A stretch of DNA of 64,000 nucleotides from Candidatus Omnitrophota bacterium (GCA_015233335.1 JADFXX010000010.1:4560-68559), one strand, 5' to 3'; positions 8,602-64,000 are shown, counted from the first letter of the stretch. Notes: generated by a model not told the origin, from the letters alone. Made by a program: numbers and translations.

Positions 8602-8637
8602 CTTGTTTTTAGAGTATTTATATTGCATACTTAAGAG
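8602..8637 (+). promoter_or_regulatory. Conserved promoter-like block abutting the start codon of paralog 2
   Basis: cttgtttttagagtatttatattgcatacttaagag has the same geometry as 5558-5593: TTGTTT, 17-nt spacer, CATACT (8626-8631), 6 nt, then ATG at 8638. Confidence 0.45.
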
Positions 8638-22093: not shown

Positions 22094-25000
22094 ATGTATA
22101 ATAAATTTCGTAAAACTGTTGCTTTAATTACGGCTACGGCGTTTTTGCTAACAACGTTAGTGCCTGTGCTTGCCTATGCGCAAATGACTGTGCCATCAAA
22201 CATGCCCTGGATGCCCACACCCGGAGAGCGGGTATTATTGAGCTTTAAATTTACCCCATCGCATTTAGTGGGCATTACCATACATCCTGACAATGCTTTA
22301 CAGTTTGATTTTTTGATCCACAAAGGAGACGGGGAAGCCGCTGAAGATCAAAAACAGGATGACTATAAGAAGTTAATTAAATATTTTTTGGCCTCGTTGA
22401 CTGTGCCAGATAGTGAGCAATGGGTGAATCTCTCTCCTTATGAAAATGATCGGATCATTTCAGGAGATTTTGGCAAGACCGAGATGGGGCGTGATCTTTT
22501 AGCCCAGGACTATATTTTAAAACAGATCACCTCTTCTTTGATGTATCCCGAGGAAGATTTGGGTAAGAAATTCTGGGATAGAATCTACCAACGGGCTCAG
22601 AAAGCCTATGGGAGGACCGACATACCGGTCAATACTTTTAACAAGGTCTGGATCGTTCCGGATGAGGCCGTTGTGTACGAAAGCGGCAACACAGCCTACA
22701 TTCTTAAAAGTCATATGAAGGTAATGATGGAAGAAGACTATCTATCGTTGGAGAAGCATTCTGCCGTTTCGATTTCTTTAGATGCAAACAGGGTCCACAC
22801 TTTAGCCTCACAAATAGTCAAGGAAATCATACTTCCGGAATTAGAGAAAGAAATCAACGAAGGCAAGAATTTTGCTCCTCTGCGGCAGATTTATAGCGGT
22901 ATGATCCTCGCCGCGTGGTATAAGAAAGCACTGAAAGAGTCCCTACTGGGACAAGTCTACGCAGATAAATCCAGGGTCAAGGGGGTTGATCAGGACCCTC
23001 AAGCCAATGAGGAGATATATCAGCGGTATTTACGGGCATTTAAAAAGGGCGTATTTAATTATATCAAGGAAGACATGGACACCTATACCCAGCAGCCTAT
23101 CCCCAGAAAATATTTTTCCGGAGGATTTGTAGATAATGCCGCGCTGGTTATGAAAGACATTCATGGTTCGTCTGATCTTGCACAACTAACTTTAGCAGAA
23201 CAGAAAAGTCTTGTGGATGCAGCGATCAGAGTTGATCCCACCAGTATAGTTACAGTTAAGGCGGACATAGCCAGCACAACAGACATAGGAGCTTTGGTTC
23301 GTCCAGAGGGAGTGGGTGTGGATCCGCGTTTTGGTCAGATGTTCGATAAGATCAATGCTCTTGTTGATTCAGATTTTCCTCAAAAAAGACGGGCATTGAA
23401 ATTTGTTAGCGAGTTAGGGGTATCCCCAAATACAAGGCATTTAATAGATCTGGTCCCAAAATTATTGGAGAGATTTGACCCTACGGAGAGACTATCTGTG
23501 ATCAAGGGAGTCCTTAAGGCCTATGGAGTTGATGGCTATAGAGAAGTTCCGATTAAAGCGGAAATGCCTTCAACGCCTGTGGTTAGTCTTCTTGAAGGCA
23601 AAAATCTAAGTACAGATTCAGTGCAGCGAGACCCTTCCCGGAGGCTTGTTATATTGGAGTTTAAAACTCCGGTTGATGTCAAAGATGGCAGGCAGTCCGA
23701 CAGAGAATTAATCGGTACGGTATTTAATAAATTTTTGATCGAGATTCCTAAGCCCAAGTTGACGGAACCCATAGAAATAGCGTTAGAGAGAAATGGCATC
23801 AATAAGTTCCTTCCTAACGGTGAGCTTTCAGATGATTTTTATAAGTGGTGGAGGACAATTAAGACGGTGCTCAGCCCCATGTTTAAAGAAGGGAACTCTA
23901 CAAATGAAGGGCTCACGCCCGAACAATGGGCTGAAAGGATATATGCTTATTTGATAGAAATCAAGAAGAATAATATCGAAAAGGGCATAGAAAAAATATT
24001 TGGCATCTATGAAGTCAAACGTATGGTTCCACAAGAGCGCGTTCGTTTACTCCAAAAAGTCTTAGGGATTTTTAATTTTCATATATCTTCACCTGACAGC
24101 CCGAAGATCTCGTTTGTTATTGATTGCAACACCGGCCAGACTATTTCAGCCAAGAAAGAGGGGGCTGGACTTTTCAGGATTAAAGAATGGCCGCATATTG
24201 GCATCGAAGGTAGTAAAAAAGATCTTGAAAAGGCGCAGGAGTATCTTGATATGGCTTCCGGAGATAACTCGATGCTGGCCTCTCAACTTGTCCAAAGTTT
24301 AGAAAGTCAGGCTATGGATCCCAAAGCGTTTAAAGATAGGTTAAGCCAGCTGCCTTCCATTGGGAATACGGAGCCTGATGATGAGAAAACTATTGAAATA
24401 GGTTTAGCCGGTATTGTGCTAAACGGTGTTCAAGAGGTTTCAGAGAGTGCCTTGCGTGTTATTGCCCAACGTTTGTCAGAATATAGCCCTCCGACCGAGG
24501 ATGATAATCTTGTTCCCGTTATTGCTCAAACAGTGATCCCCCATTCTGAAATATTTGTACAGAGGCTGATGTCTCTCCTTCAAAATGAATCACTTGATTG
24601 GGCTCACAGGAAAGCATTAGTTGATATTTTAGGAGATATGGGGGAATTTGCTGACGCTGCAGTTCCTTTGTTAAAGGAATTAGACTCCAGAAATTTGCCC
24701 TTGGATAGGAATCCCAATTACAGTAAATATATCAGAGATATTGTTCTAGCTAAAATCGGGACACTAAGAGCAATAAACCATCTTGTTGATGAATATAGAA
24801 CCTATTTGCCGGGGCTATCCTATAAGCAATTGATGCCGGGTGGAAATAGGACGCCTGAGGATATTAAAGAACTCTTGGCGCGTAAGGAAAATGTACTATT
24901 TGCATTAAAAAATGCAAGCCCGGAAGCGTTACGGTCAAGCGGTTTGATTTTTGAATTAGTAAAAGATGTGGACACAGTACTTGACCGTCTAAATCGTAGT

Positions 25001-25873
25001 CGAGGCTCTGATGAAATTGATCATCAAGTTCAAAATCAATCTCCTTTTGCACACGAGGCTATAGGTGTGATTGGTAGGAGTTTAGGAAGAAAGCGCATTG
25101 TTAAAGAAAATGAAAAGTTGGGGCTTAAGGCCTTAGTGAGATGGGCTAATGATAAAAACACAAGTGGGGGGGGGAAAGAATTGGCTATCACTCAATTATT
25201 TCTTTACGGTTGCGCTTCATTTGACCTAAGTCCGCTGGCACAAATTTCTTCTCTGACGAGAGTTGAGGTTCAGGAAAGATTGTTCTTGGGTTTAGGAAGT
25301 TTTAAAAAGAATAGATCATTGTCAGACGGTCAAATAATCCCGTTTGCCGTATATAATGCCGGTGATTTTAAAAATGATTTGGTGGCTATTGGACAAGGGT
25401 TGAAAGAGGTGACGTCCGAAGAGCCTGCTGTATGGGCGATGAGAAGTTTGGCAAAATTTGGAAAGCCAGAAGACTGGGCTAAGTTTAAGGATAAACTCCA
25501 GCCGAATGAGAAAAAAGGTCTAGATGAGATCGAGAGAGCCGCTGCGGCCCATGAACTTTCAGAGGAGTGGAGACAAGATTTTTCCAGAATAAAAAGAGTT
25601 ATACCGCCAACGCCTGCTTTAAGGGACAAGTCTATGATGAGTGTGGCACAAAACGGCGGTATCGACCTAAATGCTGCCAATTTGGATTTACAAATCAAGC
25701 GCGACGGCCGGGGAGTGCCCCTTCCTTTGGATAAGCAGGATATCAATCAGATAGGCCATATCGAGGGTTTTGTCCCCGTGATCATAGAAATTAAGCCCCT
25801 CACTAATCTGCCTTTTTTAAGTGAACTGCAGCATCAACTCCAGTCTTCCTCTGCATCCTCCGGCGGAGCCTAA
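22094..25873 (+). CDS. Large secreted modular protein, paralog 3 (1259 aa): conserved N module, roughly 840-aa cargo with HEAT-like repeat, conserved GGIDL C module
   Basis: Signal peptide ending LAYAQ. The N module shares long blocks with paralogs 1 and 2 (WVNLSPYE.DRII, TEMGRDLLAQDY.LKQIT, VNTFNKVWIVP, IPRKYFSGG). The centre contains ALVDILGDMGEFADAAVPLLKELD (HEAT-like, about 24612-24690). C module at 25655-25873 (GGIDLNAANLDLQI...GFVPVIIEIKP). Confidence 0.85.
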   Translation: MYNKFRKTVALITATAFLLTTLVPVLAYAQMTVPSNMPWMPTPGERVLLSFKFTPSHLVGITIHPDNALQFDFLIHKGDGEAAEDQKQDDYKKLIKYFLASLTVPDSEQWVNLSPYENDRIISGDFGKTEMGRDLLAQDYILKQITSSLMYPEEDLGKKFWDRIYQRAQKAYGRTDIPVNTFNKVWIVPDEAVVYESGNTAYILKSHMKVMMEEDYLSLEKHSAVSISLDANRVHTLASQIVKEIILPELEKEINEGKNFAPLRQIYSGMILAAWYKKALKESLLGQVYADKSRVKGVDQDPQANEEIYQRYLRAFKKGVFNYIKEDMDTYTQQPIPRKYFSGGFVDNAALVMKDIHGSSDLAQLTLAEQKSLVDAAIRVDPTSIVTVKADIASTTDIGALVRPEGVGVDPRFGQMFDKINALVDSDFPQKRRALKFVSELGVSPNTRHLIDLVPKLLERFDPTERLSVIKGVLKAYGVDGYREVPIKAEMPSTPVVSLLEGKNLSTDSVQRDPSRRLVILEFKTPVDVKDGRQSDRELIGTVFNKFLIEIPKPKLTEPIEIALERNGINKFLPNGELSDDFYKWWRTIKTVLSPMFKEGNSTNEGLTPEQWAERIYAYLIEIKKNNIEKGIEKIFGIYEVKRMVPQERVRLLQKVLGIFNFHISSPDSPKISFVIDCNTGQTISAKKEGAGLFRIKEWPHIGIEGSKKDLEKAQEYLDMASGDNSMLASQLVQSLESQAMDPKAFKDRLSQLPSIGNTEPDDEKTIEIGLAGIVLNGVQEVSESALRVIAQRLSEYSPPTEDDNLVPVIAQTVIPHSEIFVQRLMSLLQNESLDWAHRKALVDILGDMGEFADAAVPLLKELDSRNLPLDRNPNYSKYIRDIVLAKIGTLRAINHLVDEYRTYLPGLSYKQLMPGGNRTPEDIKELLARKENVLFALKNASPEALRSSGLIFELVKDVDTVLDRLNRSRGSDEIDHQVQNQSPFAHEAIGVIGRSLGRKRIVKENEKLGLKALVRWANDKNTSGGGKELAITQLFLYGCASFDLSPLAQISSLTRVEVQERLFLGLGSFKKNRSLSDGQIIPFAVYNAGDFKNDLVAIGQGLKEVTSEEPAVWAMRSLAKFGKPEDWAKFKDKLQPNEKKGLDEIERAAAAHELSEEWRQDFSRIKRVIPPTPALRDKSMMSVAQNGGIDLNAANLDLQIKRDGRGVPLPLDKQDINQIGHIEGFVPVIIEIKPLTNLPFLSELQHQLQSSSASSGGA

Positions 25874-51837: not shown

Positions 51838-52179
51838 ATGGGGCCTTTTTTAATTTTGTTTATTGTTCAATGTTTTTTTGCGCTAGGCGTGATTATTGTG
51901 TTAAAAAAAACATTGGATCGTGAGCTGATTGAGGCGGCCTTTGAGAAACTGGAAGCTTGTAAAAGTTCTCCGGAAGTTAAAGAAATTGTCGTGTGCCTGC
52001 CTTCCGCCGTTAGTGATGAGATGAAAACTCATTTAGAATCAATAAGACAGCGTAAATTCGTCCAAGCGAATTTAAAAATCCAGGAGGATCCTGCCCTTAA
52101 GGGAGGCATGGTTATTGCCGTGGGTGATCTTTTATTGGATTTCAGCCTTTCTGGCCGTTTGCAGCATTTTTGGTCATGA
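51838..52179 (+). CDS. Hypothetical membrane-anchored protein
   Basis: 113 aa with an N-terminal TM helix. The C-terminus (GGMVIAVGDLLLDFSLSGRLQHF) faintly resembles the C-terminus of ATP synthase delta/OSCP. This is not enough for a functional call. Confidence 0.4.
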   Translation: MGPFLILFIVQCFFALGVIIVLKKTLDRELIEAAFEKLEACKSSPEVKEIVVCLPSAVSDEMKTHLESIRQRKFVQANLKIQEDPALKGGMVIAVGDLLLDFSLSGRLQHFWS

Positions 52180-52898
52180 ACACCCCAGTTAAAAAAATTC
52201 TTATTATCGTCCCTGCTTTTAATGAATGCGGTAATATCGGCCGTACAGTCGAAGAAATCCGTCATGTGGGGATGGCTGCAGATATTTTGGTCATTGATGA
52301 TGGCTCATGGGATGACAGCGCCCAAGAAGCTCGTCGGGCTGGAGGGATGGTCGTTACTTTACCGTTTAACTTAGGTATCGGGGCCGCTGTGCAAACAGGG
52401 TTTCAATATGCCCAACAGCATCACTATGATATTGCCGTACAGATAGATGGCGACGGACAGCATGATGCCAGTTATCTGAATAAAATCATTGAACCTCTTG
52501 TTTGCGATTGTGCCGATATGGTTGTCGGCAGCCGTTTTTTAGAAAATACCGGGGGATTTCGATCGTCATTTAGCCGCAGGCTGGGGATTAATTTTTTTGT
52601 GCACTTGATCAATATTCTGACGGGAGTCAAGGTTTTGGACCCTACTTCGGGCTTTCGCGGGTATAACAAAAAAACGATCGCGTTATTTTCAAGTTATTAT
52701 CCTCATGATTTTCCCGAACCTGAGGCTATTGTCGTGGCTCAACAGGAGCGCTTGCGTATCGTTGAGGTTGCTGTAGCCATGCGCCCAAGGGAGGCGGGCA
52801 GCAGTTCCATCCGTTATCTTAAGACCCTTTACTATATGTCTAAAGTCACGCTGGCGATTCTTCTGCACATGATCCGACAAAGAAAGAGGGTAAGATGA
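52176..52898 (+). CDS. Glycosyltransferase family 2 (polyprenyl-phosphate sugar synthase-like)
   Basis: IIVPAFNECGNI, VIDDGSWDDS and QIDGDGQHD motifs. The ATG at 52176 forms an ATGA overlap with the upstream stop; the ORF-track start at 52170 is a TTG. Confidence 0.85.
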   Translation: MNTPVKKILIIVPAFNECGNIGRTVEEIRHVGMAADILVIDDGSWDDSAQEARRAGGMVVTLPFNLGIGAAVQTGFQYAQQHHYDIAVQIDGDGQHDASYLNKIIEPLVCDCADMVVGSRFLENTGGFRSSFSRRLGINFFVHLINILTGVKVLDPTSGFRGYNKKTIALFSSYYPHDFPEPEAIVVAQQERLRIVEVAVAMRPREAGSSSIRYLKTLYYMSKVTLAILLHMIRQRKRVR

Positions 52899-53251
52899 AC
52901 ATTCATGTGGTTGCGTTCTTAGTATCAGTCACAATTTTTTTGTTTGTGATTGATTTGGTGCGGCGGCGGCGATTGACGTTTAAGTATGCGGTGGCTTGGC
53001 TTTTGGTATCAGCCGGGGCGATTTTTTTCGCCATATTTTATCGCCCGATTTTCTTATGCGCGGCTTTTCTTGGTTTTGAACTGCCCAGCAATTTCATTTT
53101 TTTTGTTTTATTTTGTGTATTTGTGTTCTTAAGCCTTTTGCTGACTGTATTCCTGTGTCAGCAAAATAACCGCAATGATGTGATGGCTCAAAAGATCGCT
53201 TTACTGGAGTTTGAACTTAAGGGTTTGAAAAAGAAGATGAATGTCGAATAA
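52895..53251 (+). CDS. Small membrane protein, DUF2304-like (common partner of GT2 genes)
   Basis: 118 aa with 3-4 TM helices and an early RRRRLTFKYAVAWLL motif. ATGA overlap with the preceding GT2. The family assignment comes from memory of this pairing. Confidence 0.55.
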   Translation: MNIHVVAFLVSVTIFLFVIDLVRRRRLTFKYAVAWLLVSAGAIFFAIFYRPIFLCAAFLGFELPSNFIFFVLFCVFVFLSLLLTVFLCQQNNRNDVMAQKIALLEFELKGLKKKMNVE

Positions 53252-54228
53252 TGGATCCTATTGCCATCAGTGTCATCATCCCTGCCTATAACGCCTCGGC
53301 GACCATTGGCCGGACTCTTTTTGCTTTAACAAGCCAGGATTATGCCGGAGGGTTCGAAGTTATTGTGGTGGACGATGGTTCCCTTGACAACACAGCGAAT
53401 ATTGTAGCCTCATTTCCTGCAGTGCGTTATGTGCGACAGGAAAATGCAGGGCCGGCCTCTGCGCGCAATCATGGCGCCCGGTTAGCCAAGGGTGAATATT
53501 TTGCTTTTACGGACTCTGATTGTGTCCCAAACAAGGATTGGATCTCACAGCTAATCAAGGGTTTCGAGCAAAATCAAGTGGGAGTGGTTGCAGGGAGTTA
53601 TGGAATCGCCAACCCGAAAAGCATACTCGCCGGGTGCGTTTGGGCCGAAATTGTCTGGCGCCACAGCCATTTAATGCCAGACTTTCCTAAGGCCTTTGGC
53701 AGCTACAATTTTTGCGTTAAGAAAAATGTTTTTGAGGCAGTGAAAGGTTTTAATACTGGCTATCGCATGGCCAGTGGAGAAGATAACGATCTTAGCTATA
53801 AAATCATAAAAGCAGGCTGGCTGATTTACTTTCAACGTAAAGCCGTTGTTGATCATTATCACCCGACTGAGGTGAATCGGTATTTAAAAGAGCAGTTTCG
53901 TCACGGTTTCTGGAGAGTGAAGATGTACAGGGACCATCCCCGTATGATGCGCGGGGATGGCTATACTTACTGGAAAGATATTATTGAGATGCCCTGGGCC
54001 GGGGGCATAGGGGTGGGAATTGTCCTAAGTGTATTAAACTTTGGCGGTTTTAAGCATCTTACCTGTTTTTTGTTATTGTCATTCTTGGTGTTTGAAATTT
54101 TATCTGCATTTCTGATCACTCGCCGTTTTTTTCGGGGAATTTTCTTTGGTTTTATTCTTTTTTTGCGGGCCTTTGCGCGTATGTTTGGTTTCTCGTCGGG
54201 ATTTTTTTCAATTTCACTAAAAAAATAA
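53251..54228 (+). CDS. Glycosyltransferase family 2 with C-terminal TM helices
   Basis: SVIIPAYNASATI, VVDDGSLDNT and FTDSDCV (DxD) motifs. TAATG overlap with the upstream gene. Confidence 0.85.
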   Translation: MDPIAISVIIPAYNASATIGRTLFALTSQDYAGGFEVIVVDDGSLDNTANIVASFPAVRYVRQENAGPASARNHGARLAKGEYFAFTDSDCVPNKDWISQLIKGFEQNQVGVVAGSYGIANPKSILAGCVWAEIVWRHSHLMPDFPKAFGSYNFCVKKNVFEAVKGFNTGYRMASGEDNDLSYKIIKAGWLIYFQRKAVVDHYHPTEVNRYLKEQFRHGFWRVKMYRDHPRMMRGDGYTYWKDIIEMPWAGGIGVGIVLSVLNFGGFKHLTCFLLLSFLVFEILSAFLITRRFFRGIFFGFILFLRAFARMFGFSSGFFSISLKK

Positions 54229-54278: not shown

Positions 54279-54369
54279 GGTATTAATTACATAAAAATAT
54301 TTTTTAAATTTATTTGTCCTTATACTAAAAAAATTGCCCGAACGACGGGAAAACGAAATCAGGTTTTTT

Positions 54370-54945
54370 ATGGCTCAAGAGTCTGCTGAACAAAAATTAC
54401 TAAAGATGATGAATAAATCAAGCTCACCCGTTGCCGCTAAGCCTCATTCTGTTTCCCAAAAAATAAATTTTTCATTCAGTATAAATATTCTAAATAAATT
54501 TTTGTTCCTTGGTGTTTTTGTTTGTCTGCTCATTTTAATGTGGGAAATGCGCTGTGGGTTTATACTGCTTGGCCGGCAGTTCGATTTTTCCGCAGATTCC
54601 AGAAGCAATGCTTCATTGTCTGAAATTGCCATGCCGTCTGCTCAGAGCGTCGATTATTATCTCAAGAGCATTAATGAGCGTAATATTTTTAAACCTTACG
54701 TGCCTAAATCTGCCAGCAGACCTGCGGCTCAAGGTCTGGTGCAGAAGATGTCTAGGTATAAATTAGTCGGTATTGCTTGGCTGGATCTGCCGGAAACAGC
54801 TTCTGTCATGGTTGAAGATACGCAGAAAAAACAAACTTTCTTTCTTAAAGTAGGTGAACAATTAGAGGGCGTCACTGTCAAGACCATCTATACGGATAGA
54901 GCGGTCTTCAGTCACGAAAATGAGGAGACGACAATCAAGCTATGA
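54370..54945 (+). CDS. GspC/PilP-like secretin-associated inner-membrane protein
   Basis: One TM helix plus a C-terminal beta-rich domain (YKLVGIAWLDLPETASVMVEDTQKKQTFFLKVGEQLEGVTVKTIYTDRAVF), the pattern seen in PilP and the GspC HR domain. ATGA overlap with the secretin gene. The ATG at 54370 is preferred over the TTG at 54334. Confidence 0.55.
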   Translation: MAQESAEQKLLKMMNKSSSPVAAKPHSVSQKINFSFSINILNKFLFLGVFVCLLILMWEMRCGFILLGRQFDFSADSRSNASLSEIAMPSAQSVDYYLKSINERNIFKPYVPKSASRPAAQGLVQKMSRYKLVGIAWLDLPETASVMVEDTQKKQTFFLKVGEQLEGVTVKTIYTDRAVFSHENEETTIKL

Positions 54946-56570
54946 GCAAACACATCCCTAAACTCAAGTTCCCGATTTTATTGCTGGCTGGCCTTTTGGG
55001 CTCGATCGCTTTCTTGACGTTGGCCCCCGCGCAAACGGATGAAGAAGCGGCGCTGCCCAAGCCTATTATTCTGACAGAGCCTAAAGAGCCTTTGGAAGAA
55101 AGGATGGAGCGTAAGATCACTCTCGATGTGCGAGATATGAACATCGTTGATGTGATCAAATTCCTCGCCCAAAAAGGGGAATTTAACATTATTATAGCTC
55201 CTTCGGTCGAAGGCCGCAGCACTGTGCTTTTACACGACGTATCGATCAAAGACGCGTTGGACATTGTCATCATTTCCAACAAGCTGGCCTATCACATTGA
55301 GGATGATATTATCCAGGTGATGTCCGCAGGGGAATATGAGGCAATGTACGGCAAGCGTTTTAACGACAAGACCCAGGTGAGCATTATCCATCTGCAGTAT
55401 GCCAAACCCAGTTATGTGCTGGCGGCTTTGGATAACATGCGTAGCAATATCGGCAAAATCATTATCGATGAAGATACGGGATCAGTTGTTTTGGTAGAAA
55501 CTCCTCAGACGATTGCTTTGATGAAAAAAGCGATCGATCAAATCGAGCGTCCGCTCGATACTTTAGTTTTCAATTTGAAATATGCCAAAGCGGATATGGT
55601 TGTTGAAAAGTTGCGTTCCCGGATTGATGCTAAAGCCGTGGGTTCCATCACGGCTGATGAGCGTTCCAACCAGGTTTTGGTGAGGGTTTTTCCGGGACGA
55701 CGCGATGAAGTGGAAAAAACCATCCGCACTCTGGATGAGCCCACACGGGAAGTTTTGATCGAGGCCCGCGTTTTGCAGGTTGTTTTAAATCCCACCTATG
55801 ATGTGGGAATGGACATTACGGCTCCTATTGTCAAGAATGGAAAAACAATGCTCAATTTATCGAGTTCGGCATTAGATGAGACTGCTTTAGGTGCCGGGGA
55901 TAGTCTGGGGACTAATTTCGGCAGAATTGCGGTGGGAAGTTTTAACGCCAATCAATTTACGGCGGCGATACGTGCCATGCAGCAGGTTAGTGATACTAAA
56001 ATCCTTTCCAGTCCCCAAATTTTGGTGACCAATAACGAGGAAGCCAAGATTCATATCGGGGACACGGTCCCTTACATTGTGTCTACGACCAACGGTACCG
56101 GGCAAAACGCCATTACCAGCGACGATGTGCGTTTTGTTGATGTAGGTCTCAAGTTAAGTGTTGTCCCGACTATCAATGATGATGGTATGGTGACCATGCG
56201 ATTGACGCCGGAAATTTCCGAGGTGGTGGCTACTGTCAAATCAGCGGCAGGCAGCGGCATTCCCCAGGTGAACAAAACTGAAGTAGAAACATCGGTCATG
56301 GTCAAAGATGGTCAAACGATTGTGATGGCGGGGTTGCGTAACCAGAATAAAGTTCATACGAAAAAAGGAATTCCCGGTCTTATGGATATTCCGTTCGTAG
56401 GAGGGGCCTTCAGTCGTACTGCCGATACATTTACTTCGTCGGAAATTGTGATCTTGATCACTCCTCACATTGTTAAGGGCTCTGATAATTATTCGAAAGC
56501 AGACAGCTCCATCAAAGGGGCCAAAACGTATAACGAAAATATTCAACCGAAACAGCCAGTCAAACCTTAA
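54942..56570 (+). CDS. Secretin (GspD/PilQ family outer-membrane channel)
   Basis: Signal peptide; N0/STN-like domain (ITLDVRDMNIVDVIKFLAQKGEFNIII); secretin core (ILSSPQILVTNNEEAKIHIGDTVPY ... GIPGLMDIPFVGGAFS ... SEIVILITPHIV). Confidence 0.9.
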   Translation: MSKHIPKLKFPILLLAGLLGSIAFLTLAPAQTDEEAALPKPIILTEPKEPLEERMERKITLDVRDMNIVDVIKFLAQKGEFNIIIAPSVEGRSTVLLHDVSIKDALDIVIISNKLAYHIEDDIIQVMSAGEYEAMYGKRFNDKTQVSIIHLQYAKPSYVLAALDNMRSNIGKIIIDEDTGSVVLVETPQTIALMKKAIDQIERPLDTLVFNLKYAKADMVVEKLRSRIDAKAVGSITADERSNQVLVRVFPGRRDEVEKTIRTLDEPTREVLIEARVLQVVLNPTYDVGMDITAPIVKNGKTMLNLSSSALDETALGAGDSLGTNFGRIAVGSFNANQFTAAIRAMQQVSDTKILSSPQILVTNNEEAKIHIGDTVPYIVSTTNGTGQNAITSDDVRFVDVGLKLSVVPTINDDGMVTMRLTPEISEVVATVKSAAGSGIPQVNKTEVETSVMVKDGQTIVMAGLRNQNKVHTKKGIPGLMDIPFVGGAFSRTADTFTSSEIVILITPHIVKGSDNYSKADSSIKGAKTYNENIQPKQPVKP

Positions 56571-56612
56571 GGGCGGCTAATTCAAATAATTCTAAGGATG
56601 GAGATCAAACTT

Positions 56613-57407
56613 ATGGGCAAATCATGTAAAGAGTTTCTAAGAAGACTCAACCTTACGACGTTGAAGCGATTGGGTGTTTTTATGGTAGTATTTTTTATTT
56701 TTGCCCTTCTGGAAAACGTTTGCGTGCATGCCCAGGACGCTGCTGATGTCGCCTTGCCCCAGCAGACAGTAGGCAGCGATGCAAATCAAGCTCAGGCTCA
56801 ACGGGATCAATTTGTCAAAGAGATCCGCCGGGTGGAAAATCTTAATAAGAAATATACCAAGGAAATAGAAGATGTTCGTGCTTTGTTGGCAGATAAAGAT
56901 GCGGACTATCAAAAACGTATGCAGGATCTGGAAAATAAACTGGCAGCTCAACAGGATGAAAATTCTAAAAAAGCAGTAGCTCAAGAGCAGACCCAGCAAA
57001 CGGCACAAGAATTGGAAGCCAAGACCAATGAAATGCTTTCTAAAGGCGGGGATCTCGATCCGCAGGATCAGCAGTTCAGGGAAGAATTAGCCAAAGCTCA
57101 TTATAACATGGGCAATATTTATTTTGAGCGCGGTGAGTATCAGAGGGCTGTAGTGGAATATTACCAGGCTGTGGATTTGACTCCGAATGACGCGGATACT
57201 CATTATAATCTGGCCTTTGTCAGTGGTGAGTATTTGGGAGACCAGGAAACTGCTCTTAAACATTATCAATGGTATCTGTATCTTAAGCCCAATGCTCCAG
57301 ATATTTCTGCCGTTAAGGAAAAAATTATCCAGGCTAAGCTTAGTTTACGCAGTAAAGTCGATTCCCCGTTGGATAAAAATGACGGTAATTTTAATTTAAC
57401 CCGTTAG
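56613..57407 (+). CDS. Membrane-anchored coiled-coil / TPR protein
   Basis: Hydrophobic N-terminal anchor, Gln/Glu-rich coiled-coil segment and two TPR units (AHYNMGNIYFERGEYQRAVVEYYQAVDLTPND...). The ATG at 56613 has GGAG 10 nt upstream; an alternative ATG lies at 56598. Confidence 0.65.
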   Translation: MGKSCKEFLRRLNLTTLKRLGVFMVVFFIFALLENVCVHAQDAADVALPQQTVGSDANQAQAQRDQFVKEIRRVENLNKKYTKEIEDVRALLADKDADYQKRMQDLENKLAAQQDENSKKAVAQEQTQQTAQELEAKTNEMLSKGGDLDPQDQQFREELAKAHYNMGNIYFERGEYQRAVVEYYQAVDLTPNDADTHYNLAFVSGEYLGDQETALKHYQWYLYLKPNAPDISAVKEKIIQAKLSLRSKVDSPLDKNDGNFNLTR

Positions 57408-57409
57408 AA

Positions 57410-58996
57410 ATGTTTTTTATGACCGGAAATCTCGGAAAAATTTTGTTGTTATCAGTTTTGGGGCTCTATTTTGGCACGCTGGCGCTTGCGAATAATTTGT
57501 CGGTAGTGAATGTGACTTTAGGGACCCGCAATCCTAATGCCAAAACGGTAATGGTGACTTTTAACGTCAGCTGGCAAAACTCCTGGCGAAATAAGATCAA
57601 CCATGATGCCGCTTGGCTTACCGTGCGTCTGAACAGTACCCAAGCAACTCCGGTAGCTAAACAACTATGTCAAATTACGGCCACGGGTGTTAATCCTGCA
57701 GGCACTTCACCGGGCACAGGTTCTAATTTGGAGATTTATGTCCCCAAAGATTCTTATGGCGCTTTTCTTAGGCCTTCCAACACTGGCTTTCTAGGCAATA
57801 TTGATACTAAGAATGTGCAATTGACCATCAATTATCAAAGTTGCGGCTTTAGCGATAATGACCAGATTTATGCGAGTGTTTTTGGTTTAGAAATGGTTTT
57901 CATACCACAAGGATCTTTTTACGCAGGAGATTATAATACCAGTGTCGCTTCCTTAAATAGCGGGACAGGGGATGCTTCTCCATGGCGTATTGGAAGTGAG
58001 AATGCCATTCCTGTTTCTAATCCGCCTTCCGGTGGCTATCAATATATTTCTGCTGGAAATCCGGGAGAATTTGCAACAGGGTTTTTATTTACCATCCCGG
58101 CTGCCTTCCCTAAAGGATATAACGCGTTTTATGCCATGAAATATGAATTAAATGAAGGACAATGGGCAGAATTCCTGAATTCTTTGCCAACTAATGCTGC
58201 GCGTGCCAACCATGATTTATCTGATAATAATCACAAAAACTCTACCAGTGTGGTTAATCGCAATACTCTTAGCTGTTCCGGTACTCCTTTGGTGTGTGCG
58301 ACCCAGAGACCATCGCGGGCGGTCGGTTATTTAAGCTGGATGGATTTAGCGGCTTTCCTAGCCTGGGATGCTTTGCGGCCTATGACGGAATTGGAATTTG
58401 AAAAAATGTCCCGTGGTCCTCTTTTGTCGAGCGCAGGAGAATACATTTGGGGAAATCAAATTATTACGCCAGTGTCGGCGATCAGCGGTACGACCGAAGA
58501 CGGCACAGAAACAGTTACAACGCTCAATGCCAATGCCAACTATGGCAATTCAACTTTTTCAGGAGGGGATAGTGCCCAGGGTGTTTATTATCAAACCGGG
58601 CCTTTACGCGGGGGTATTTTTGCGCTTGCCAATTCAAACAGGACAAGCGCCGGAGCCTCGTATTATGGAGTTATGGATTTGGGGGGCAACTTAAAAGAAC
58701 GCGTGGTTACGATCGGTAACAACGCAGGGTTAGCTTTTACAGGAAATCATGGAACAGGAGTTCTTAATACAACTGCTGGTTATGAAGGGAATGCCAATGT
58801 AGCGGGATGGCCAGGCATGGACGCACAAGCTCAAAATGGCGTTGACGGGGCAGCTGGATCTGGATTTCGTGGAGGTTCCTGGGCGGATAGTTCAAATTAT
58901 TTAAGGACATCAGATCGTCTGGAGGCGGCGTTGACAAAAACAGACGCTCAAAGTATCTATGGAGGCCGTGGGGTTCGGACTTATGATGGCAATTAA
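57410..58996 (+). CDS. Secreted FGE-sulfatase/SUMF1-like domain protein, paralog A
   Basis: Signal peptide ending LALA-NN. FGE-like blocks: MVFIPQGSFYAGD, YAMKYELNEGQWAEFLN, VGYLSWMDLAAFLAWDALRPMTELEFEKMSRG and GFRGGSW. A novel N-terminal domain carries an SWQNSWRN motif. Confidence 0.7.
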   Translation: MFFMTGNLGKILLLSVLGLYFGTLALANNLSVVNVTLGTRNPNAKTVMVTFNVSWQNSWRNKINHDAAWLTVRLNSTQATPVAKQLCQITATGVNPAGTSPGTGSNLEIYVPKDSYGAFLRPSNTGFLGNIDTKNVQLTINYQSCGFSDNDQIYASVFGLEMVFIPQGSFYAGDYNTSVASLNSGTGDASPWRIGSENAIPVSNPPSGGYQYISAGNPGEFATGFLFTIPAAFPKGYNAFYAMKYELNEGQWAEFLNSLPTNAARANHDLSDNNHKNSTSVVNRNTLSCSGTPLVCATQRPSRAVGYLSWMDLAAFLAWDALRPMTELEFEKMSRGPLLSSAGEYIWGNQIITPVSAISGTTEDGTETVTTLNANANYGNSTFSGGDSAQGVYYQTGPLRGGIFALANSNRTSAGASYYGVMDLGGNLKERVVTIGNNAGLAFTGNHGTGVLNTTAGYEGNANVAGWPGMDAQAQNGVDGAAGSGFRGGSWADSSNYLRTSDRLEAALTKTDAQSIYGGRGVRTYDGN

Positions 58997-60638
58997 TTTG
59001 ATCAAGCAATCCCTGTTCTTTATCTTTCTATTTTTTGTAAGTATGTCTGCTTCAGTTGCATGGGCCAATAATTTAAAATTAAACGGTTTAGATGAGGTTA
59101 CAATCAATACAGCCTCAAATACCATGACGTTTTCTTTTAACTTGACTCAGGACAATAGCTGGCGAAATGCAACTAATTACGATGCCATATGGGTTTTTAT
59201 GAAATATTCGACTGACGGCGGAGCGACCTGGAACCATGCCACCATGGCCGGTTCTGGTATTAATCCTGTCGGCTATGTAATCCCTAATGGGTTTCAGATC
59301 GTGGTTCCCGCTGATGGAAAAGGTTTTTTTCTGCAAAGGTCAGGCTATGGCACAGGGAGCATTTCTTTAACGAATATTCAGTTTGTTTGGAATTATGCCC
59401 TAGACGGCGTATCAAGTACAGTGGCTCAGGCGGCTAATACTTTGCATACTATTTATGGGGTTGAAATGGTCTATATCCCTCAAGGCGCTTTTTATGCAGG
59501 GGATGGAAGTCAGTTCGGTTCATTAGAATATGCTTTCACTCAGGGCAGCAGTGTTAATACTCCCTGGTATATTCAAAGCGAGTCAGCCATTCAGACGACC
59601 AATACGCCAAACGGAGGTTATTATTATCAAAATACCGGGGCCAAGGGTGACGAATTTCCAAGTGGGGCTTCATTTTTAATCCCTGCTTCTTTTCCTAAAG
59701 GGTTTGGGGCCTTTTATCTGATGAAATATGAACTGACCGAGGGACAATGGGTAAGTTTCTTTAATACTCTTCCTATTGCCGCTAGACCCTATCGGGATAT
59801 TACCTCCGGGAACGCAAAAACAGGCGGGAAAAATTCTCAAGGAGTGGTTAATCGAAATACGATTTCCTGGAATTCTTCTATTCCTTCTTCAATGGCCACT
59901 ACATTGAGACCCTCCCGACCGGTGAGCTACGTTTCCTGGCCGGATGTGGCGGCTTGGGCTGAGTGGGCGGCATTGAGGCCTATTACTGAATTCGAATATG
60001 AAAAAGCGGCACGGGGGATAGATAATCCGCCAACAGCGGGTGAATTTGTTTGGGGAACAACATCTTTAACAGCCCCCAATCCCGGTGATATTGTCCCGAA
60101 TAACGATGAAAATGGTACGGAAACTTTGGGTGATACTGCAAATATCAATAGCAATGCGCTAGCCTGGAGCTCAGGTGACGGTCGCAGCGGTGGCATTGCG
60201 GCGGGACAAGCAGGACCTTTACGCATCGGTATTTTTGCTGCCAGCACTTCTAACTCTACTAATCCCCGGGCCAGTAGCGGTGCCGGATTTTACGGAAATA
60301 TGGAGCTTTCCGGTAATTTAGCAGAGCCCACCGTGACTGTTGGCCGGCAAGAAGGGTTGAATTTTCATGGCACCAATGGCACAGGAAATTTAACGGCACA
60401 GGGATTTGCCACTAATGGTGACTGGCCGGGCATGGATTCCAACAACGCTAATGGAATAAACAGTACCGTTGGTATCGGTTATCGTGGCGGGGATTTTCAG
60501 TCACTGAATTCAACGGCATTTGAAACATCCGCGCGCACTTATGCGGTTAAAGACCCTGATTCACAGGGCTGTCTGCAGCGTTATGATTCGAATTGTGGAG
60601 TTTTTCAAGGAGGCCGTTTAGGCAGAGGCGCATCTTAA
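58983..60638 (+). CDS. Secreted FGE-sulfatase/SUMF1-like domain protein, paralog B
   Basis: Same architecture as 57410-58996 (MVYIPQGAFYAGD, YLMKYELTEGQWVSFFN, VSYVSWPDVAAWAEWAALRPITEFEYEKAARG, GYRGGDF; N-domain motif QDNSWRN). The ATG at 58983 gives a proper signal peptide ending VAWA-NN. Confidence 0.7.
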   Translation: MMAINLIKQSLFFIFLFFVSMSASVAWANNLKLNGLDEVTINTASNTMTFSFNLTQDNSWRNATNYDAIWVFMKYSTDGGATWNHATMAGSGINPVGYVIPNGFQIVVPADGKGFFLQRSGYGTGSISLTNIQFVWNYALDGVSSTVAQAANTLHTIYGVEMVYIPQGAFYAGDGSQFGSLEYAFTQGSSVNTPWYIQSESAIQTTNTPNGGYYYQNTGAKGDEFPSGASFLIPASFPKGFGAFYLMKYELTEGQWVSFFNTLPIAARPYRDITSGNAKTGGKNSQGVVNRNTISWNSSIPSSMATTLRPSRPVSYVSWPDVAAWAEWAALRPITEFEYEKAARGIDNPPTAGEFVWGTTSLTAPNPGDIVPNNDENGTETLGDTANINSNALAWSSGDGRSGGIAAGQAGPLRIGIFAASTSNSTNPRASSGAGFYGNMELSGNLAEPTVTVGRQEGLNFHGTNGTGNLTAQGFATNGDWPGMDSNNANGINSTVGIGYRGGDFQSLNSTAFETSARTYAVKDPDSQGCLQRYDSNCGVFQGGRLGRGAS

Positions 60639-60673: not shown

Positions 60674-63600
60674 ATGTCTAATAAAAACACGGGTTTAAAA
60701 TTGAAATCAAGACATTGTCCATGGAAAATTTTTGCCTTTTTGGCATTTTTCATGGTGGGTACTTTTCTCTCTTTTGCCTATGCGCAATACAGCGGTGGGG
60801 ATGAATCCACAGGTTCTGCGCAGTCTTCCATCGGTAACGACATCTATGATGGCGGTGCGCAGAATAATTCTCCCTATGCCACTTCAGGCACCAACGGAAC
60901 CCTGTCTTATGGTTCACCAACCCAGCTAGTTTTTACTGTAAGTCCGTCTGATACCAATCACTCCTTTCCATTTTCACGTCAACCGGTTGTAGCGGTTGTA
61001 GATGCCAATGGCAATGTGGTCACCGGCGACAATACCGATACAGTGACCCTTTCGATTCTGAGCAACCCCGGTAATGGTGTTTTGATGGGGACTACCACGG
61101 TTACGGTGGTCAATGGTTTGGCCCAATTTTCTAACTTAGCGATTAACGCAGCCGGCCAACTATACACTCTTAAAGCAACATCCCCCGGTCTAACCTCCGG
61201 GATATCCGCCACTTTTAATATCAATCCCGGTACCGGTCCCCAAGTTTCGGCTGTATGGGATCCAAATGGTGTTAGCGCTGGTGTTGGTGGTTATTGGATC
61301 TATGTATGGGCGGCATCAGATAATCAGAAAGAGCCTTTTAATAACACGGATACTAACGGGGTTTGTAGTAATGGGGCGGGAGCTTGTACTGGTACTTGTA
61401 CAGGTAATTGTAGCGGTGTAGGCAGCTGTCTTGGCGGTAATGGCGGTACTTGCGCGTCAGATACTTGCGCAGGTGGCGGATATTGCGTCCCAACTGGTGA
61501 TTCATGCTTTATAACAATTTATAAGGCCACAAGTGCTGCTTCACCAGTTCAGGCTAGCAATCAGGTTGCTTATTTTGATACTGATTATACGAATAATTGG
61601 TGCAAATCCCACACCGCTTGGCAACCAGACACAAACACTTCTTCATCAAGTTATTTAGCGACTGTAGTCATCAATGGAGCAACGCCCTGCGGAACCGGTG
61701 TTACAAATCCTCCAAGTTCCCCTGGCAGCGTTGGGACTGGAAGTCCGTGTACAGCTACCATTCCTCTATCATTAACCGGCGGCTCTATTATTAATGATTC
61801 GTACGGAAATGTGATTAACTGGCAGGACATAGGAGCGATTAAAGCAAAAACCGATAAAATGAATTGGTCGGAAATCGATGCTATTAGGGCGAATACTGAT
61901 TCCATCAACTGGTATGATGTAAACTATCTTGCTTCTATTTCCAGCACTGTTAATTCAATTTCTACCGCTGTCGGCACAACGGCGATCAACTGGCAGGACT
62001 TTGCCGTTGAGTCTAATCATGGTGTTAACTGGACTGATCTGGCGCGATTGTCCCTTAATGGTATCAATTGGGCAGACATGAGCGTTCTTACCAATGTAGG
62101 CGTTAACTGGTATGACTTTAATGTCCTGACCAAGAAGGGGATTAATTGGGCTGATGTAGCGACGCTTCATAATATAGGGATCAACTGGAACGATTTAGTC
62201 GTTCTGGGCCGTGCGGGCATCAATTGGAGTGATTTTGGGGTGTCCAGTAAGGTGGGTATTAATTGGCATGATATGGCGATCATGACTGGCGTCAATATTG
62301 ATTGGAACAAACCGATCAATTGGTATGATTTATCTGTTTTGACCAATACACACATTAACTGGTCTGATTTGGATGTCTTATCGGTGAATCATATCAATTG
62401 GTCTGACATTAATGTTTTAAGTTCGGTAGGAGTTAACTGGTATGACATAAATGTTTTGAGTCATGCGGGTATTAACTGGGATGATTTAGGCGTCCTGGGC
62501 CGTGTCGGTCTTAATTGGAACGATTTTGGAGTCATGAGCAAGATCGGTATTAACTGGGACGATTTTGGGGTACTCAGCAAGACAGGGGTTAACTGGAGCG
62601 ATCTGAATGTGTTAAGCCGGACAGGTATCAATTGGAATGATTTTGGCGTCTTAAGCCGTGCCGGCATTAATTGGAATGATTTGGGAGTGTTAAGCAAGAC
62701 CGGCATTAACTGGAACGATTTAAGTGTATTAGCTCGAACAGGTATAAATTGGAATGATTTAGGAGTGTTAAGCAAAACGGGTATTAATTGGAGCGATCTG
62801 AATATATTGACTCGTTCAGGGATTAATTGGAGTGATTTTGGTGTCTTGAGCCGTACTGGTCTTAATTGGAATGATTTTGAGGTCTTGAGCCGTGCAGGTA
62901 TTAATTGGAATGATTTGGGTGCCTTGAGCAAAACCGGTATTAACTGGACCGATTTAAATGTCTTGAGCCGTACAGGAATAAATTGGAACGACTTTAATAC
63001 GATAAGCCGTACAGGGATTAATTGGAATGATTTTGGGGTGTTAAGTAAGACGGGGATTAACTGGAATGATATTGACCTGTTGAGCAGGATGGGGATTAAT
63101 TGGAATGATTTTGGCGTATTAAGCAAAACAGGGATCAATTGGAATGATTTGAATGTGATAAGTCGTACAGGGATTAATTGGAATGATTTTGGGGTGTTAA
63201 GTAAAACAGGGGTCAATTGGTACGATTTGGATGTATTGAGCCGCACAGGGATTAACTGGAATGATTTAAATGTGCTGGGTCGTACGGGTCTTAATTGGGG
63301 AGATTTTGCAGTATTAGGAAAAGCAGGGATTAACTGGAATGATCTTGGTGTACTAGGCAAGACAGGGGTCAATTGGAATGATTTTGGTGTGTTAAGCAAG
63401 ACAGGAGTCAACTGGAATGATTTTGGTGTGTTAAGCAAGACAGGGGTTAATTGGAATGATCTCAATGTTCTAAGCCGCACTGGAATTAACTGGAGTGATT
63501 TAGGTGTGTTAGGTAAGGCTGGGGTGAATTGGAATGATTTAAATGTTTTAAGCCATACAGGAGTAAATTGGAATGATTTTGGAGTGTTGAGCAAAGTAGG

Positions 63601-64000
63601 TGTCAATTGGAATGCGTTGGATGTTTTGAGTAGTAATGGGATCAACTGGAATGACTTAAACGTGTTAAGCCGTATTGGACTCAATTGGAGTGATTTAGGT
63701 GTGTTGAGTAAGGCAGGAGTAAATTGGAATGATTTTGGAGTTTTGAGTAAGGTGGGTTTAAATTGGTATGATTTTGGCATTTTAGGTAAGACCGGAATTA
63801 ATTGGAATGATTTTGGCGTGTTAAGCAAAACAGGGATTAATTGGAATGATTTAGGGGGCTTGAGCAAGACAGGGATCAATTGGAATGATTTGGGAGTCTT
63901 GAGCAAGATGGGGGTCAATTGGACTGATTTGGGAGTCTTGAGCAAGATAGGAGTTAACTGGAATGATCTGAATGTGTTAAGTCGAATTGGGATTAATTGG
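60674..64000 (+). CDS. Giant secreted repeat protein (3' end beyond window): signal peptide, Ig-like domain, Cys-rich module, at least 55 tandem 13-aa GINWND repeats
   Basis: Not in the ORF track. I translated this frame by hand through 62520 and found it open from the ATG at 60674. Downstream of that point, an exact codon count of the 13-aa repeat units fits a continuous frame to nt 64000 (1109 codons in total). The protein starts MSNKNTGLKLKSRHCPWKIFAFLAFFMVGTFLSFAYAQ. Wobble-position variation among repeats keeps G-I/V-N-W constant (ggtattaactgg / gggatcaattgg / ggaataaattgg). Confidence 0.85.
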   Translation, partial: MSNKNTGLKLKSRHCPWKIFAFLAFFMVGTFLSFAYAQYSGGDESTGSAQSSIGNDIYDGGAQNNSPYATSGTNGTLSYGSPTQLVFTVSPSDTNHSFPFSRQPVVAVVDANGNVVTGDNTDTVTLSILSNPGNGVLMGTTTVTVVNGLAQFSNLAINAAGQLYTLKATSPGLTSGISATFNINPGTGPQVSAVWDPNGVSAGVGGYWIYVWAASDNQKEPFNNTDTNGVCSNGAGACTGTCTGNCSGVGSCLGGNGGTCASDTCAGGGYCVPTGDSCFITIYKATSAASPVQASNQVAYFDTDYTNNWCKSHTAWQPDTNTSSSSYLATVVINGATPCGTGVTNPPSSPGSVGTGSPCTATIPLSLTGGSIINDSYGNVINWQDIGAIKAKTDKMNWSEIDAIRANTDSINWYDVNYLASISSTVNSISTAVGTTAINWQDFAVESNHGVNWTDLARLSLNGINWADMSVLTNVGVNWYDFNVLTKKGINWADVATLHNIGINWNDLVVLGRAGINWSDFGVSSKVGINWHDMAIMTGVNIDWNKPINWYDLSVLTNTHINWSDLDVLSVNHINWSDINVLSSVGVNWYDINVLSHAGINWDDLGVLGRVGLNWNDFGVMSKIGINWDDFGVLSKTGVNWSDLNVLSRTGINWNDFGVLSRAGINWNDLGVLSKTGINWNDLSVLARTGINWNDLGVLSKTGINWSDLNILTRSGINWSDFGVLSRTGLNWNDFEVLSRAGINWNDLGALSKTGINWTDLNVLSRTGINWNDFNTISRTGINWNDFGVLSKTGINWNDIDLLSRMGINWNDFGVLSKTGINWNDLNVISRTGINWNDFGVLSKTGVNWYDLDVLSRTGINWNDLNVLGRTGLNWGDFAVLGKAGINWNDLGVLGKTGVNWNDFGVLSKTGVNWNDFGVLSKTGVNWNDLNVLSRTGINWSDLGVLGKAGVNWNDLNVLSHTGVNWNDFGVLSKVGVNWNALDVLSSNGINWNDLNVLSRIGLNWSDLGVLSKAGVNWNDFGVLSKVGLNWYDFGILGKTGINWNDFGVLSKTGINWNDLGGLSKTGINWNDLGVLSKMGVNWTDLGVLSKIGVNWNDLNVLSRIGINW
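61811..64000 (+). repeat. Tandem 39-bp (13-codon) coding repeat array, at least 55 units, continuing past the window end
   Basis: The first three units (61811-61984) are degenerate. Strict 13-codon phasing runs from 61985, where 672 codons equal 51 full units, one 6-aa unit and a final INW. Consensus G-[IV]-N-W-[NS]-D-[FL]-[GN]-V-L-S-[KR]-T. Confidence 0.95.

Follow-up and report, generated by a model that had tools for sequence, protein, structure and literature searches.

We analysed a 64,000-nt stretch of DNA from a Candidatus Omnitrophota bacterium (GCA_015233335.1, JADFXX010000010.1:4560-68559), referred to below as the window. Close to its end, downstream of a secretin gene, the plus strand carries a long reading frame, the INW gene, in which a signal peptide and non-repeat domains are followed by a long array of 13-residue units built around an Asn-Trp pair. 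A preliminary description, made from the sequence alone, had drawn attention to this frame, and our translation agrees with it: from the ATG at 60674 to position 64000 there are 1109 codons and no stop, the gene being cut by the window end. The only entry for this region in the list of open reading frames (ORFs) is, as had also been stated, a 494-aa ORF on the minus strand (62461-63945). The plus frame is missing from the list because ORFs running off the window are omitted there.

The encoded protein starts with a Sec-type signal peptide (aa 1-37; 60674-60784, plus strand, as are all parts of the gene), recognized by inspection of the translation. It consists of a basic n-region, the hydrophobic core IFAFLAFFMVGTFLSF and a cleavage motif of A-x-A followed by Q. 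Both the start codon and the A-x-A-Q motif are kept in three relatives, P0001, P0002 and P0003 (alignment A2). Next comes a putative bacterial immunoglobulin (Ig)-like module of the adhesin type, about 100 aa long (aa ~77-190; 60902-61243), which was assigned through word-index and BLASTP matches. Of the 49 word-index hits, 46 cover this region alone. In BLASTP it matches (E = 4e-19) a unit present in nine or more tandem copies in P0006, an invasin/Big_1-type protein with Big_1/Invasin_D3 domains elsewhere in its sequence. No Pfam model scores above threshold for the module in the window protein itself. The middle domain that follows (aa 191-379; 61244-61810), delimited in alignment A2, matches no family and contains a Cys-rich G/T/S insertion (aa 231-278; 61364-61507) that varies among orthologs.

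The repeats begin with a lead-in of three degenerate INW units of 15, 15 and 27 aa (aa 380-436; 61811-61981), of the form INWxDIxAIKAKTD. The regular array (61982-64000) opens with seven units, continues with an irregular unit of 19 aa (aa 528-546; 62255-62311) and another 43 units, and breaks off in a partial unit at the window end. The protein contains 56 occurrences of NW; one of them, the first (aa 307), belongs to the middle domain and does not count as a unit. This leaves 55 units (3 lead-in, 7 regular, 1 irregular, 43 regular and the partial last one) and reproduces the earlier count of at least 55 units with an invariant Asn-Trp. The signal peptide and non-repeat domains that had been placed ahead of the array are likewise seen in the translation and conserved in orthologs; the same architecture is present in three orthologs of the window protein. 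Conservation differs along the array. The lead-in units are kept unit by unit in orthologs and in the distant relatives P0050 and P0051, and so are the proximal units, including the conserved 19-aa unit, in orthologs and even in distant relatives. Distal units are homogenized within each lineage, indicating recent expansion within the array.

At the DNA level, Tandem Repeats Finder reported two periods over 62513-63981, one of 39 nt (37.3 copies) and one of 78 nt (18.8 copies), with 70% matches. The pattern [IV]NW-30 nt-[IV]NW matches 40 times in the window, on the plus strand only and always within 61985-64000, and zero times across 100 dinucleotide-preserving shuffles. Such a repeat might be non-coding, or the true gene might be the minus-strand ORF, which is long and is the only one listed in the region. 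Codon-level evidence points to the plus frame instead. Among the 43 distal units, most variation falls on the third codon position (column entropy 0.69, 0.46 and 1.28 bits for positions 1, 2 and 3), and of the six frames the plus frame has by far the highest share of synonymous differences (3388 synonymous and 4123 non-synonymous; 3388/7511). Compared with the ortholog in L002, the N-terminal domains have a dN/dS of 0.17 and the proximal array one of 0.14, both far below 1, in keeping with the earlier suggestion of selection on this frame. Moreover, the plus frame runs on from the conserved N-terminal region and signal peptide, and homologs exist by the hundreds, all in the plus frame. The minus-strand ORF translates to a degenerate mirror repeat, 'LLKTPKSFQLIPV'. 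Because codon-position entropy and the synonymous and non-synonymous counts favor the plus frame, we judge it to be an antisense shadow of the array and not a gene, and the idea that it, or a non-coding repeat, accounts for the region is effectively refuted. By these comparative measures, the plus-strand gene starting at 60674 is genuine, conserved and under purifying selection.

Sequence and predicted structure of the repeat unit

To define the unit, we used 5590 distinct units from more than 100 genomes. Their consensus is G(80%)-[IV](95%)-N-W-x-D(78%)-[LIFMV]-x-x-[LM](88%)-[ST](89%)-x-[ATS], where N and W stand at 100% by construction, as units were anchored on 'NW' for extraction. Positions 5, 8, 9 and 12 are variable, and the conserved positions 4, 7, 10 and 11 alternate with them. 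The units are nearly devoid of Pro (0.09%) and Cys (0.01%), and the array sequence is rich in Gly, Asn and Ser.

The earlier statement that the motif belongs to no named family held in every library we searched. For the window protein, the only Pfam match of the repeat is Lysostaphin_N (PF25533) at 18.7 bits against a cut-off of 60, with no stretch passing. The lysostaphin N-terminal repeats also have a 13-residue period, but their consensus differs and has no N-W. We attribute the match, which reaches 31.9 bits in P0050, to periodicity and reject homology. The only NCBIfam match of the window protein, to CbiE (43.8 bits; cut-off 92.9), has no passing stretch either; we rejected it as an artefact of scores summed over the repeats. 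Four full-length relatives (P0003, P0050, P0052 and P0057) contain no Pfam repeat family, and in these and the window protein no RTX, pentapeptide, leucine-rich repeat (LRR), PbH1 or insect antifreeze protein-type model of Pfam or NCBIfam matches at E <= 0.1. Repeat profiles run against all PDB sequences picked up nothing but artefacts, namely Thg1 and a flagellin construct with a myc-tag repeat. The available portions of the literature on Omnitrophota biology and long proteins, which relies on Pfam, do not mention a 13-residue N-W repeat or the gene, and a literature text search for 13-residue repeats and Omnitrophota repeat proteins found no description of the motif. The repeat is thus unnamed within Pfam, NCBIfam, PHROGs and PDB sequences and, on this basis, appears undescribed.

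We next consider what structure the unit may adopt. Mean-field direct coupling analysis was applied to 6058 four-unit windows (effective number of sequences, 4193). The strongest couplings within the unit are (6,9), at a separation of 3, and (8,12), at a separation of 4, followed by 9-12, 5-8, 5-9, 9-13, 7-11, 8-11, 7-10 and 6-13. Mean coupling over positions 5-13 is 0.63, 0.45, 1.43 and 1.36 for separations 1-4, and 0.27, 0.06, 0.78 and 0.61 for separations 5-8. Judged by covariation, this i+3/i+4/i+7 pattern is the periodicity of an alpha-helix and not of a beta-strand. The hydrophobic moment over positions 4-13 peaks at 115-120 degrees (0.39 at 120) and is 0.16-0.17 at 160-180 degrees. AlphaFold2, given a diverse multiple sequence alignment of 57 rows drawn from protein matches, produced 12 helices for 12 units, each of 8-9 residues at unit positions ~5-13. 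Together these data support, as the most likely structure, a single short amphipathic alpha-helix of about nine residues per unit, spanning positions ~4/5-13.

The consensus can be read in terms of helix capping. Helices are commonly capped at the N-terminus by a hydrophobic staple and a capping box, and at the C' end by Gly. In the INW unit, [IV]2 would be N', Asn 3 the N-cap, Trp 4 N1, Asp 6 N3 (the capping box) and the hydrophobic residue at position 7 N4 (the hydrophobic staple). The Gly of the next unit would then end the helix as a Schellman-type C' residue.

As a control for couplings between units, we shuffled the units of each array among themselves. For neighboring units, (13,5'), (5,13'), (9,5'), (12,10') and (13,8') exceed the control, and their position sums center on 18, as antiparallel helices would give. 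For units two apart, (10,13'') and (7,11'') exceed it, with offsets of +3 and +4, as would be given by parallel stacked helices. These signals are only suggestive of antiparallel i/i+1 and parallel i/i+2 packing. Such packing would create a compact, elongated, two-layer rod resembling an alpha-solenoid, with a structural period of 26 residues. Stacked helices usually lie about 1 nm apart. Under this assumption the rod would extend ~0.5 nm per unit, or ~25 nm for 55 units and ~100 nm for 205, its length being set by unit number. A slight excess of similarity is also seen at even unit lags (26 aa, two units). The most diverged arrays (L020, L066 and L072) do not show it. We put it down to duplication history and do not take it, by itself, as a sign of a structural super-repeat.

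Several observations speak against a helical rod. Both AlphaFold2 runs were of low confidence (pLDDT 41.7 and 50.2, pTM 0.35 and 0.19), and therefore no tertiary model is reliable and only the secondary structure can be used. The first of them, based on a shallow alignment, drew beta-strands. A Foldseek search of the 57-row model against PDB returned only BurrH at a meaningless E = 9.2. Position 8, in the middle of the helix, is most often occupied by Gly (17% across the family and a higher share in the window), which is unusual for a helix. Finally, the couplings between units are weak, at most 0.6.

The extended beta-solenoid proposed in the preliminary description has to be weighed against this background. 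In such a structure each 13-residue unit, or pair of units, would be a rung with Asn and Trp ladders, and the invariant Asn and the alternating I-N-W do resemble Asn-ladder solenoids. Moreover, in the first AlphaFold2 run (16 units, 31-row in-register alignment) the chain was drawn as ~10-residue strands with 3-residue turns. However, that model had a pLDDT of 41.7, the second run was all-helical, covariation falls at i+3/i+4/i+7 and not at i+2, and the hydrophobic moment drops from its peak at 115-120 degrees to below half of that value at 160-180. No beta-solenoid family of Pfam is matched, and four large hydrophobic residues per 13 would presumably be too bulky for a coil of 13 residues. 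These data turn the proposal of a beta-solenoid into an improbable one.

Low confidence in both runs and the abundance of Gly, Asn and Ser could also mean that the array has no fixed structure and serves as an intrinsically disordered or elastic spacer. Against this stand the near-perfect 13-aa spacing from NW to NW across arrays, the 78-95% conservation of the Gly, the Asp, two hydrophobic positions and the Ser/Thr over the distinct units, purifying selection on the array, the near absence of Pro and the strong covariation within the predicted helix. We consider a disordered spacer as improbable as the beta-solenoid.

If the helical unit is correct, its closest structural counterparts would be the short alpha-solenoids (TPR, HEAT/PBS-HEAT and LRV), which likewise consist of tandem short amphipathic helices joined by tight turns. 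The antiparallel i/i+1 and parallel i/i+2 packing of two-layer alpha-solenoids is what the weak covariation between INW units hints at. The INW array differs in its 13-residue period, with one helix per unit, all helices equivalent in sequence and an invariant N-W. The repeat length is 34 aa in TPR, ~31-40 aa in HEAT/PBS-HEAT and 24 aa in LRV, and to our knowledge a 13-residue, one-helix period is shorter than that of any named helical solenoid family. Neither the window protein nor its full-length relatives match TPR, HEAT, ARM, Sel1 or LRV in Pfam.

Distribution of the family and conserved gene order

How widespread is the repeat? An exhaustive HMMER search with an eight-unit profile over protein-cluster representatives yielded 391 representatives at E <= 1e-3, of which 115 reach E <= 1e-10 and 31 reach E <= 1e-30, among them proteins of 2809 and 2304 aa. 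By the word-index search, only three proteins span the array (P0001-P0003), of which P0003, from an NCBI Omnitrophica metagenome-assembled genome (MAG), is full length at 868 aa. Family members in NCBI all come from Candidatus Omnitrophota and bear names such as 'hypothetical', 'LamG domain-containing' or 'carboxypeptidase-like regulatory domain-containing'. At the DNA level, a degenerate pattern (three [IV]NW at 39-nt spacing) found arrays in at least 120 genome stretches of the GTDB species set, a lower bound. Nearly all of the matches listed are Candidatus Omnitrophota MAGs or MAGs automatically labelled Planctomycetales. Long INW arrays were also observed on short contigs of MAGs labelled Gastranaerophilales, Gallionellaceae or Treponemataceae (among them L022, L036 and L061). 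These off-phylum labels, Planctomycetales included, probably reflect binning contamination or coarse labels for Omnitrophota DNA. Lone matches in Streptococcus, Streptomyces and similar genomes are at chance level.

Array length varies greatly, from ~22 to more than 205 units between species. At many loci the array fills all 8 kb examined, with 205 units at perfect 13-aa spacing and both ends open; one array of this kind belongs to a complete chromosome (L011, OY759724.1). The lengths of relatives extend from 868 aa up to arrays exceeding 2666 aa, but for the window gene itself, cut off at 1109 codons, the earlier label 'giant' goes beyond what the sequence shows. In many MAGs the two halves of one INW gene lie on two contigs: the array breaks assemblies, which partly explains how the family came to be overlooked. 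An exact 61-mer from the window end found no match among metagenome contigs.

Assembly leaves other traces as well. In L002, a contig of JGI 3300020786, the sequence at ~8215-9148 switches into the reverse complement of its own array. This fold-back assembly chimera has given P0001 a false C-terminus and created a false minus-strand gene. In L023 (CAVYLG010000003.1), an Omnitrophota MAG and the closest genome among the matches listed (80% nucleotide identity over 6.7 kb), the array is split into short ORF fragments in different frames, probably as a result of indel errors in a long-read MAG and not because the gene is a pseudogene.

The genes upstream of the INW gene, all on the plus strand, form a conserved set. 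A trio of GT2, DUF2304 and GT2 glycosyltransferase genes (52170-54228) lies directly upstream and is also found in a related locus, L001. A gene for a GspC-like protein (54334-54945) precedes that of the secretin (54942-56570; Pfam Secretin, E = 4e-47, and Secretin_N). In NCBIfam the secretin is closest to PilQ (232 bits) and then GspD (213 bits), both below their cut-offs. The next gene (56598-57407) encodes a TPR protein that, by Pfam and NCBIfam, is weakly similar to the PilW/Tgl pilotin type. A promoter and terminator scan of 52-64 kb gave nothing better than shuffled sequence.

Between the TPR protein and the INW gene are two paralogous genes (57410-58996 and 58959-60638) for proteins with signal peptides and the fold of formylglycine-generating enzyme (FGE)-sulfatase (PF03781, E = 2e-8 and 3e-13). 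Similarity to FGE in PDB spans only ~55 aa, and exact look-ups of the two protein sequences yielded no record. Their motifs RGGSWADSSNY and YRGGDFQSLNS contain no Cys where we take the catalytic Cys pair of FGE to be (RGGS...C....C). Because this pair is absent, the two proteins are not formylglycine-generating enzymes. By analogy they may be scaffolds resembling PorK/GldK rather than enzymes; the NCBIfam match to PorK/GldK is weak (E = 0.07).

The upstream order is the same in three orthologs. Among the tblastn matches listed, upstream synteny is seen in ~34 independent loci, with one or two FGE-fold genes in ~25 and none in ~9; the secretin gene is syntenic in ~25 loci of relatives. Downstream, in the ~29 loci that reach the 3' end, the C-terminal domain of the INW protein is followed by a gene for a 435-aa protein and usually by atpA. 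The 435-aa protein (L001 12610-13917 and ~28 other loci) has an N-terminal signal or transmembrane segment, a coiled-coil-rich body and a C-terminal transmembrane segment; it matches no Pfam or NCBIfam family and is always encoded immediately downstream of the INW gene, ahead of atpA and in the orientation of the INW gene. In L001 an F-type ATPase operon comes next and then GspE/PilB, GspF/PilC and a pilin. The alpha and beta subunits of this ATPase pass the NCBIfam cut-offs for atpA and atpD and show secondary similarity to the gliding ATPase subunits MMOB1660 and MMOB1670 (396 and 412 bits). The INW gene had been described as the last gene of a secretin operon. The linkage to the secretin is borne out in ~34 other genomes, but the terminal position is not, as the gene for the 435-aa protein, the ATPase operon and the PilB, PilC and pilin genes follow it in relatives.

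A locus combining an F-type ATPase with a type 4a pilus has been reported from every Omnitrophota class and tied to host attachment, according to the available part of that study (PMC10066038). Judged by gene order, the INW gene sits inside a locus of the architecture that this part of Seymour et al. (PMC10066038) describes.

Could the array instead be derived from a phage tail fibre, or the locus be a prophage or another mobile element? Some distant relatives give reason to ask. In P0101, INW-like motifs accompany a domain of the PHROG tail-fibre type (E = 3e-25). Those of P0104 are spaced by 14 aa (GINWxSLNKDIQRA) and occur together with tail-fibre-like GNVGIGT motifs. However, PHROGs gave nothing for the window protein or P0003, tblastn against 50,697 phage genomes found no match, and 2.9 million viral contigs contain only sporadic pattern matches of one to three units and no arrays. 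Moreover, the window is chromosomal: it contains dnaE, ribD, ligA, an xerC-like gene, the dcw cluster, glycine cleavage genes and lipB, so that housekeeping genes flank the locus, and synteny extends across the phylum. A phage or mobile-element origin is thus very improbable. A third relative, P0079, has a short array beside Ig-like and InlB B-repeat domains. From the architectures of P0104, P0101 and P0079, the INW unit seems to be a mobile extracellular module.

Two other proteins with 13-residue periodicity were rejected as family members. P0111 is a eukaryotic LRR protein with 13-aa low-complexity repeats. P0128 is a near-perfect 13-aa tandem repeat of 'SENWTDGEITCHE', which also has N-W and is otherwise unlike the INW unit.

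Candidate function and known systems

The C-terminal region is a further guide to function. Full-length relatives end in a non-repeat domain of ~260 aa (142-382 aa in 14 complete tails) that is Ser/Thr-rich and coiled-coil-like, with a conserved tail, VVxKxW[FY]ExE. A profile built from 13 sequences matches only coiled-coil stalks in PDB, the best being the DC-SIGNR neck (E = 2e-10) and the others designed coiled coils and stalk fragments of trimeric autotransporters; it passes no Pfam threshold. In alignment A6, repeated segments of ~23-30 aa with the pattern G-x-x-TD-[TS]-x(3-5)-[TS]-[LIV]-FG-x-[IL] can be aligned to the neck of human DC-SIGNR, whose repeats are 23 residues long. This similarity is probably convergent, reflecting coiled-coil periodicity. 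The matches suggest that the C-terminal domain is an oligomerizing helical stalk, and it probably oligomerizes or anchors the protein. Obligate oligomerization could also account for the low confidence of AlphaFold2 on monomers.

Omnitrophota are widespread, uncultured, ultra-small bacteria thought to be attached to, or to prey on, other cells, and most of their large proteins lack annotation. We propose, with a probability of roughly 0.5, that the INW protein is a Sec-exported modular protein whose 13-residue single-helix units build a rod, and that it is an envelope or surface fibre linked to the secretin locus throughout Omnitrophota. An Ig-like module of the binding type would be carried on a length-variable rod of stacked, N-capped amphipathic helices, with the protein oligomerized or anchored through its coiled-coil-like C-terminal domain. 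As a fibre, adhesin stalk or tether, the protein would use the adjacent PilQ-like secretin system for its export, or be assembled together with it, and might take part in the cell-cell attachment lifestyle proposed for Omnitrophota. The Sec signal peptide and a genetically linked secretin are both present, and it is from such context that we infer the function of the gene, including surface location, dependence on the secretin and an adhesive role. Two points detract from this proposal. A signal peptide and an adjacent secretin gene are no proof that the protein is a substrate of that secretin. In addition, the 3' end of the window gene lies outside the window, so that its C-terminal domain and downstream genes are assigned from relatives.

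The same gene order can be read differently. The protein might be a periplasmic or envelope-spanning component (a scaffold, ruler or tether) of the secretin/type IV pilus/ATPase machine and not a secreted substrate, held in place by its C-terminal domain and the neighboring 435-aa membrane protein. Its position between the secretin and pilotin-like genes on one side and those of the membrane protein, ATPase and PilB/C on the other is strictly conserved in dozens of genomes, and the gene looks single-copy, many MAGs having its halves on two contigs. PorK is a ring lipoprotein of the type IX secretion system, and the non-catalytic FGE-fold paralogs recall PorK/GldK, to the extent that their NCBIfam match allows. 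On the other hand, a more than 10-fold variation in unit number is ill-suited to a periplasm of fixed width. An N-terminus with Ig-like, LamG or other binding modules is what surface adhesins typically have, and INW arrays also occur in other architectures of the extracellular type (P0079 and P0101). We regard a periplasmic component as rather unlikely.

A bolder form of the surface-fibre proposal can be put forward only tentatively. The array might represent a new structural class, a 13-residue single-helix alpha-solenoid forming rods of programmable length, from ~10 to more than 100 nm. The protein might act as a hitherto overlooked surface 'leg' or tether of the phylum-wide secretin/type 4a pilus/F-type ATPase attachment machine of Omnitrophota, exported by its own PilQ-like secretin with non-catalytic FGE-fold ring proteins.

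Tandem-repeat stalks are familiar from exported bacterial fibres and adhesins; what would be new is the repeat itself and its fixed place in a phylum-wide locus. Bacterial adhesin stalks, such as Big/invasin Ig arrays, trimeric autotransporters and RTX extenders, share with the INW protein a signal peptide, a putative N-terminal Ig-like module of the binding type and a long tandem array of strongly variable copy number, as well as the coiled-coil-like terminal domain seen in INW relatives. They are built from Ig domains of ~100 aa, coiled coils or beta-rolls, whereas the INW unit would be a 13-aa helix. The associated machinery also differs: INW genes are linked to a secretin, and the full-length relatives show neither an autotransporter barrel nor a type I secretion signal. 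In P0003, P0050, P0052 and P0057, Pfam finds no YadA-type beta-barrel anchor.

Within the phylum, the available part of a preprint describes giant proteins of the Archaeovorin and Dockerin types, longer than 20-30 thousand residues, with SecA-like, dockerin and TSP3 domains, encoded beside loci resembling the type II secretion system (bioRxiv 10.1101/2023.11.21.568195). As far as that part goes, the INW protein resembles them in being a large, poorly annotated exported protein encoded near gspD/E/F-like, pilus and F-type ATPase genes. Attachment to other cells is also the role proposed for the giant-protein loci and, in the available part of PMC10066038, for the 'symbiotic' F-type ATPase/type 4a pilus locus. 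INW relatives are smaller (868-2809 aa, with arrays exceeding 2666 aa), consist mostly of one unrecognized repeat and have none of the giant-protein domains.

The gliding machinery of Mycoplasma mobile, with its surface legs and F1-like ATPase, offers another parallel in that a large surface-type gene stands beside F-type ATPase genes. Seymour et al. drew a gliding analogy for the Omnitrophota ATPase in the part of their study available (PMC10066038). The organism considered here is diderm and its locus includes secretin and pilus genes, unlike Mycoplasma mobile, and we found no sequence similarity of the INW protein to the gliding proteins. The resemblance is an analogy only.

The INW repeat is phylum-wide, fixed in a locus suspected of serving attachment, and makes up the bulk of a protein that varies more than 10-fold in length. 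The curated libraries searched miss it, and databases routinely truncate INW genes as arrays break short-read assemblies. Defining the repeat provides a searchable marker for the locus and a concrete candidate for a surface fibre. Should the predicted helix hold, the unit may offer structural biology and the design of repeat proteins a new, minimal type of helical repeat.

Elsewhere in the window we noted three large plus-strand ORFs, at 5594-8569, 8638-14286 and 22094-25873 (991, 1882 and 1259 aa), that match no Pfam family at E <= 1e-5 and contain no tandem DNA repeats. We also noted a 113-aa ORF at 51838-52179 whose match to ATP synthase delta/OSCP (E = 4e-9) is confined to the C-terminal half of that family; it stands by itself ahead of the glycosyltransferase genes, at a great distance from any ATPase operon of the window.

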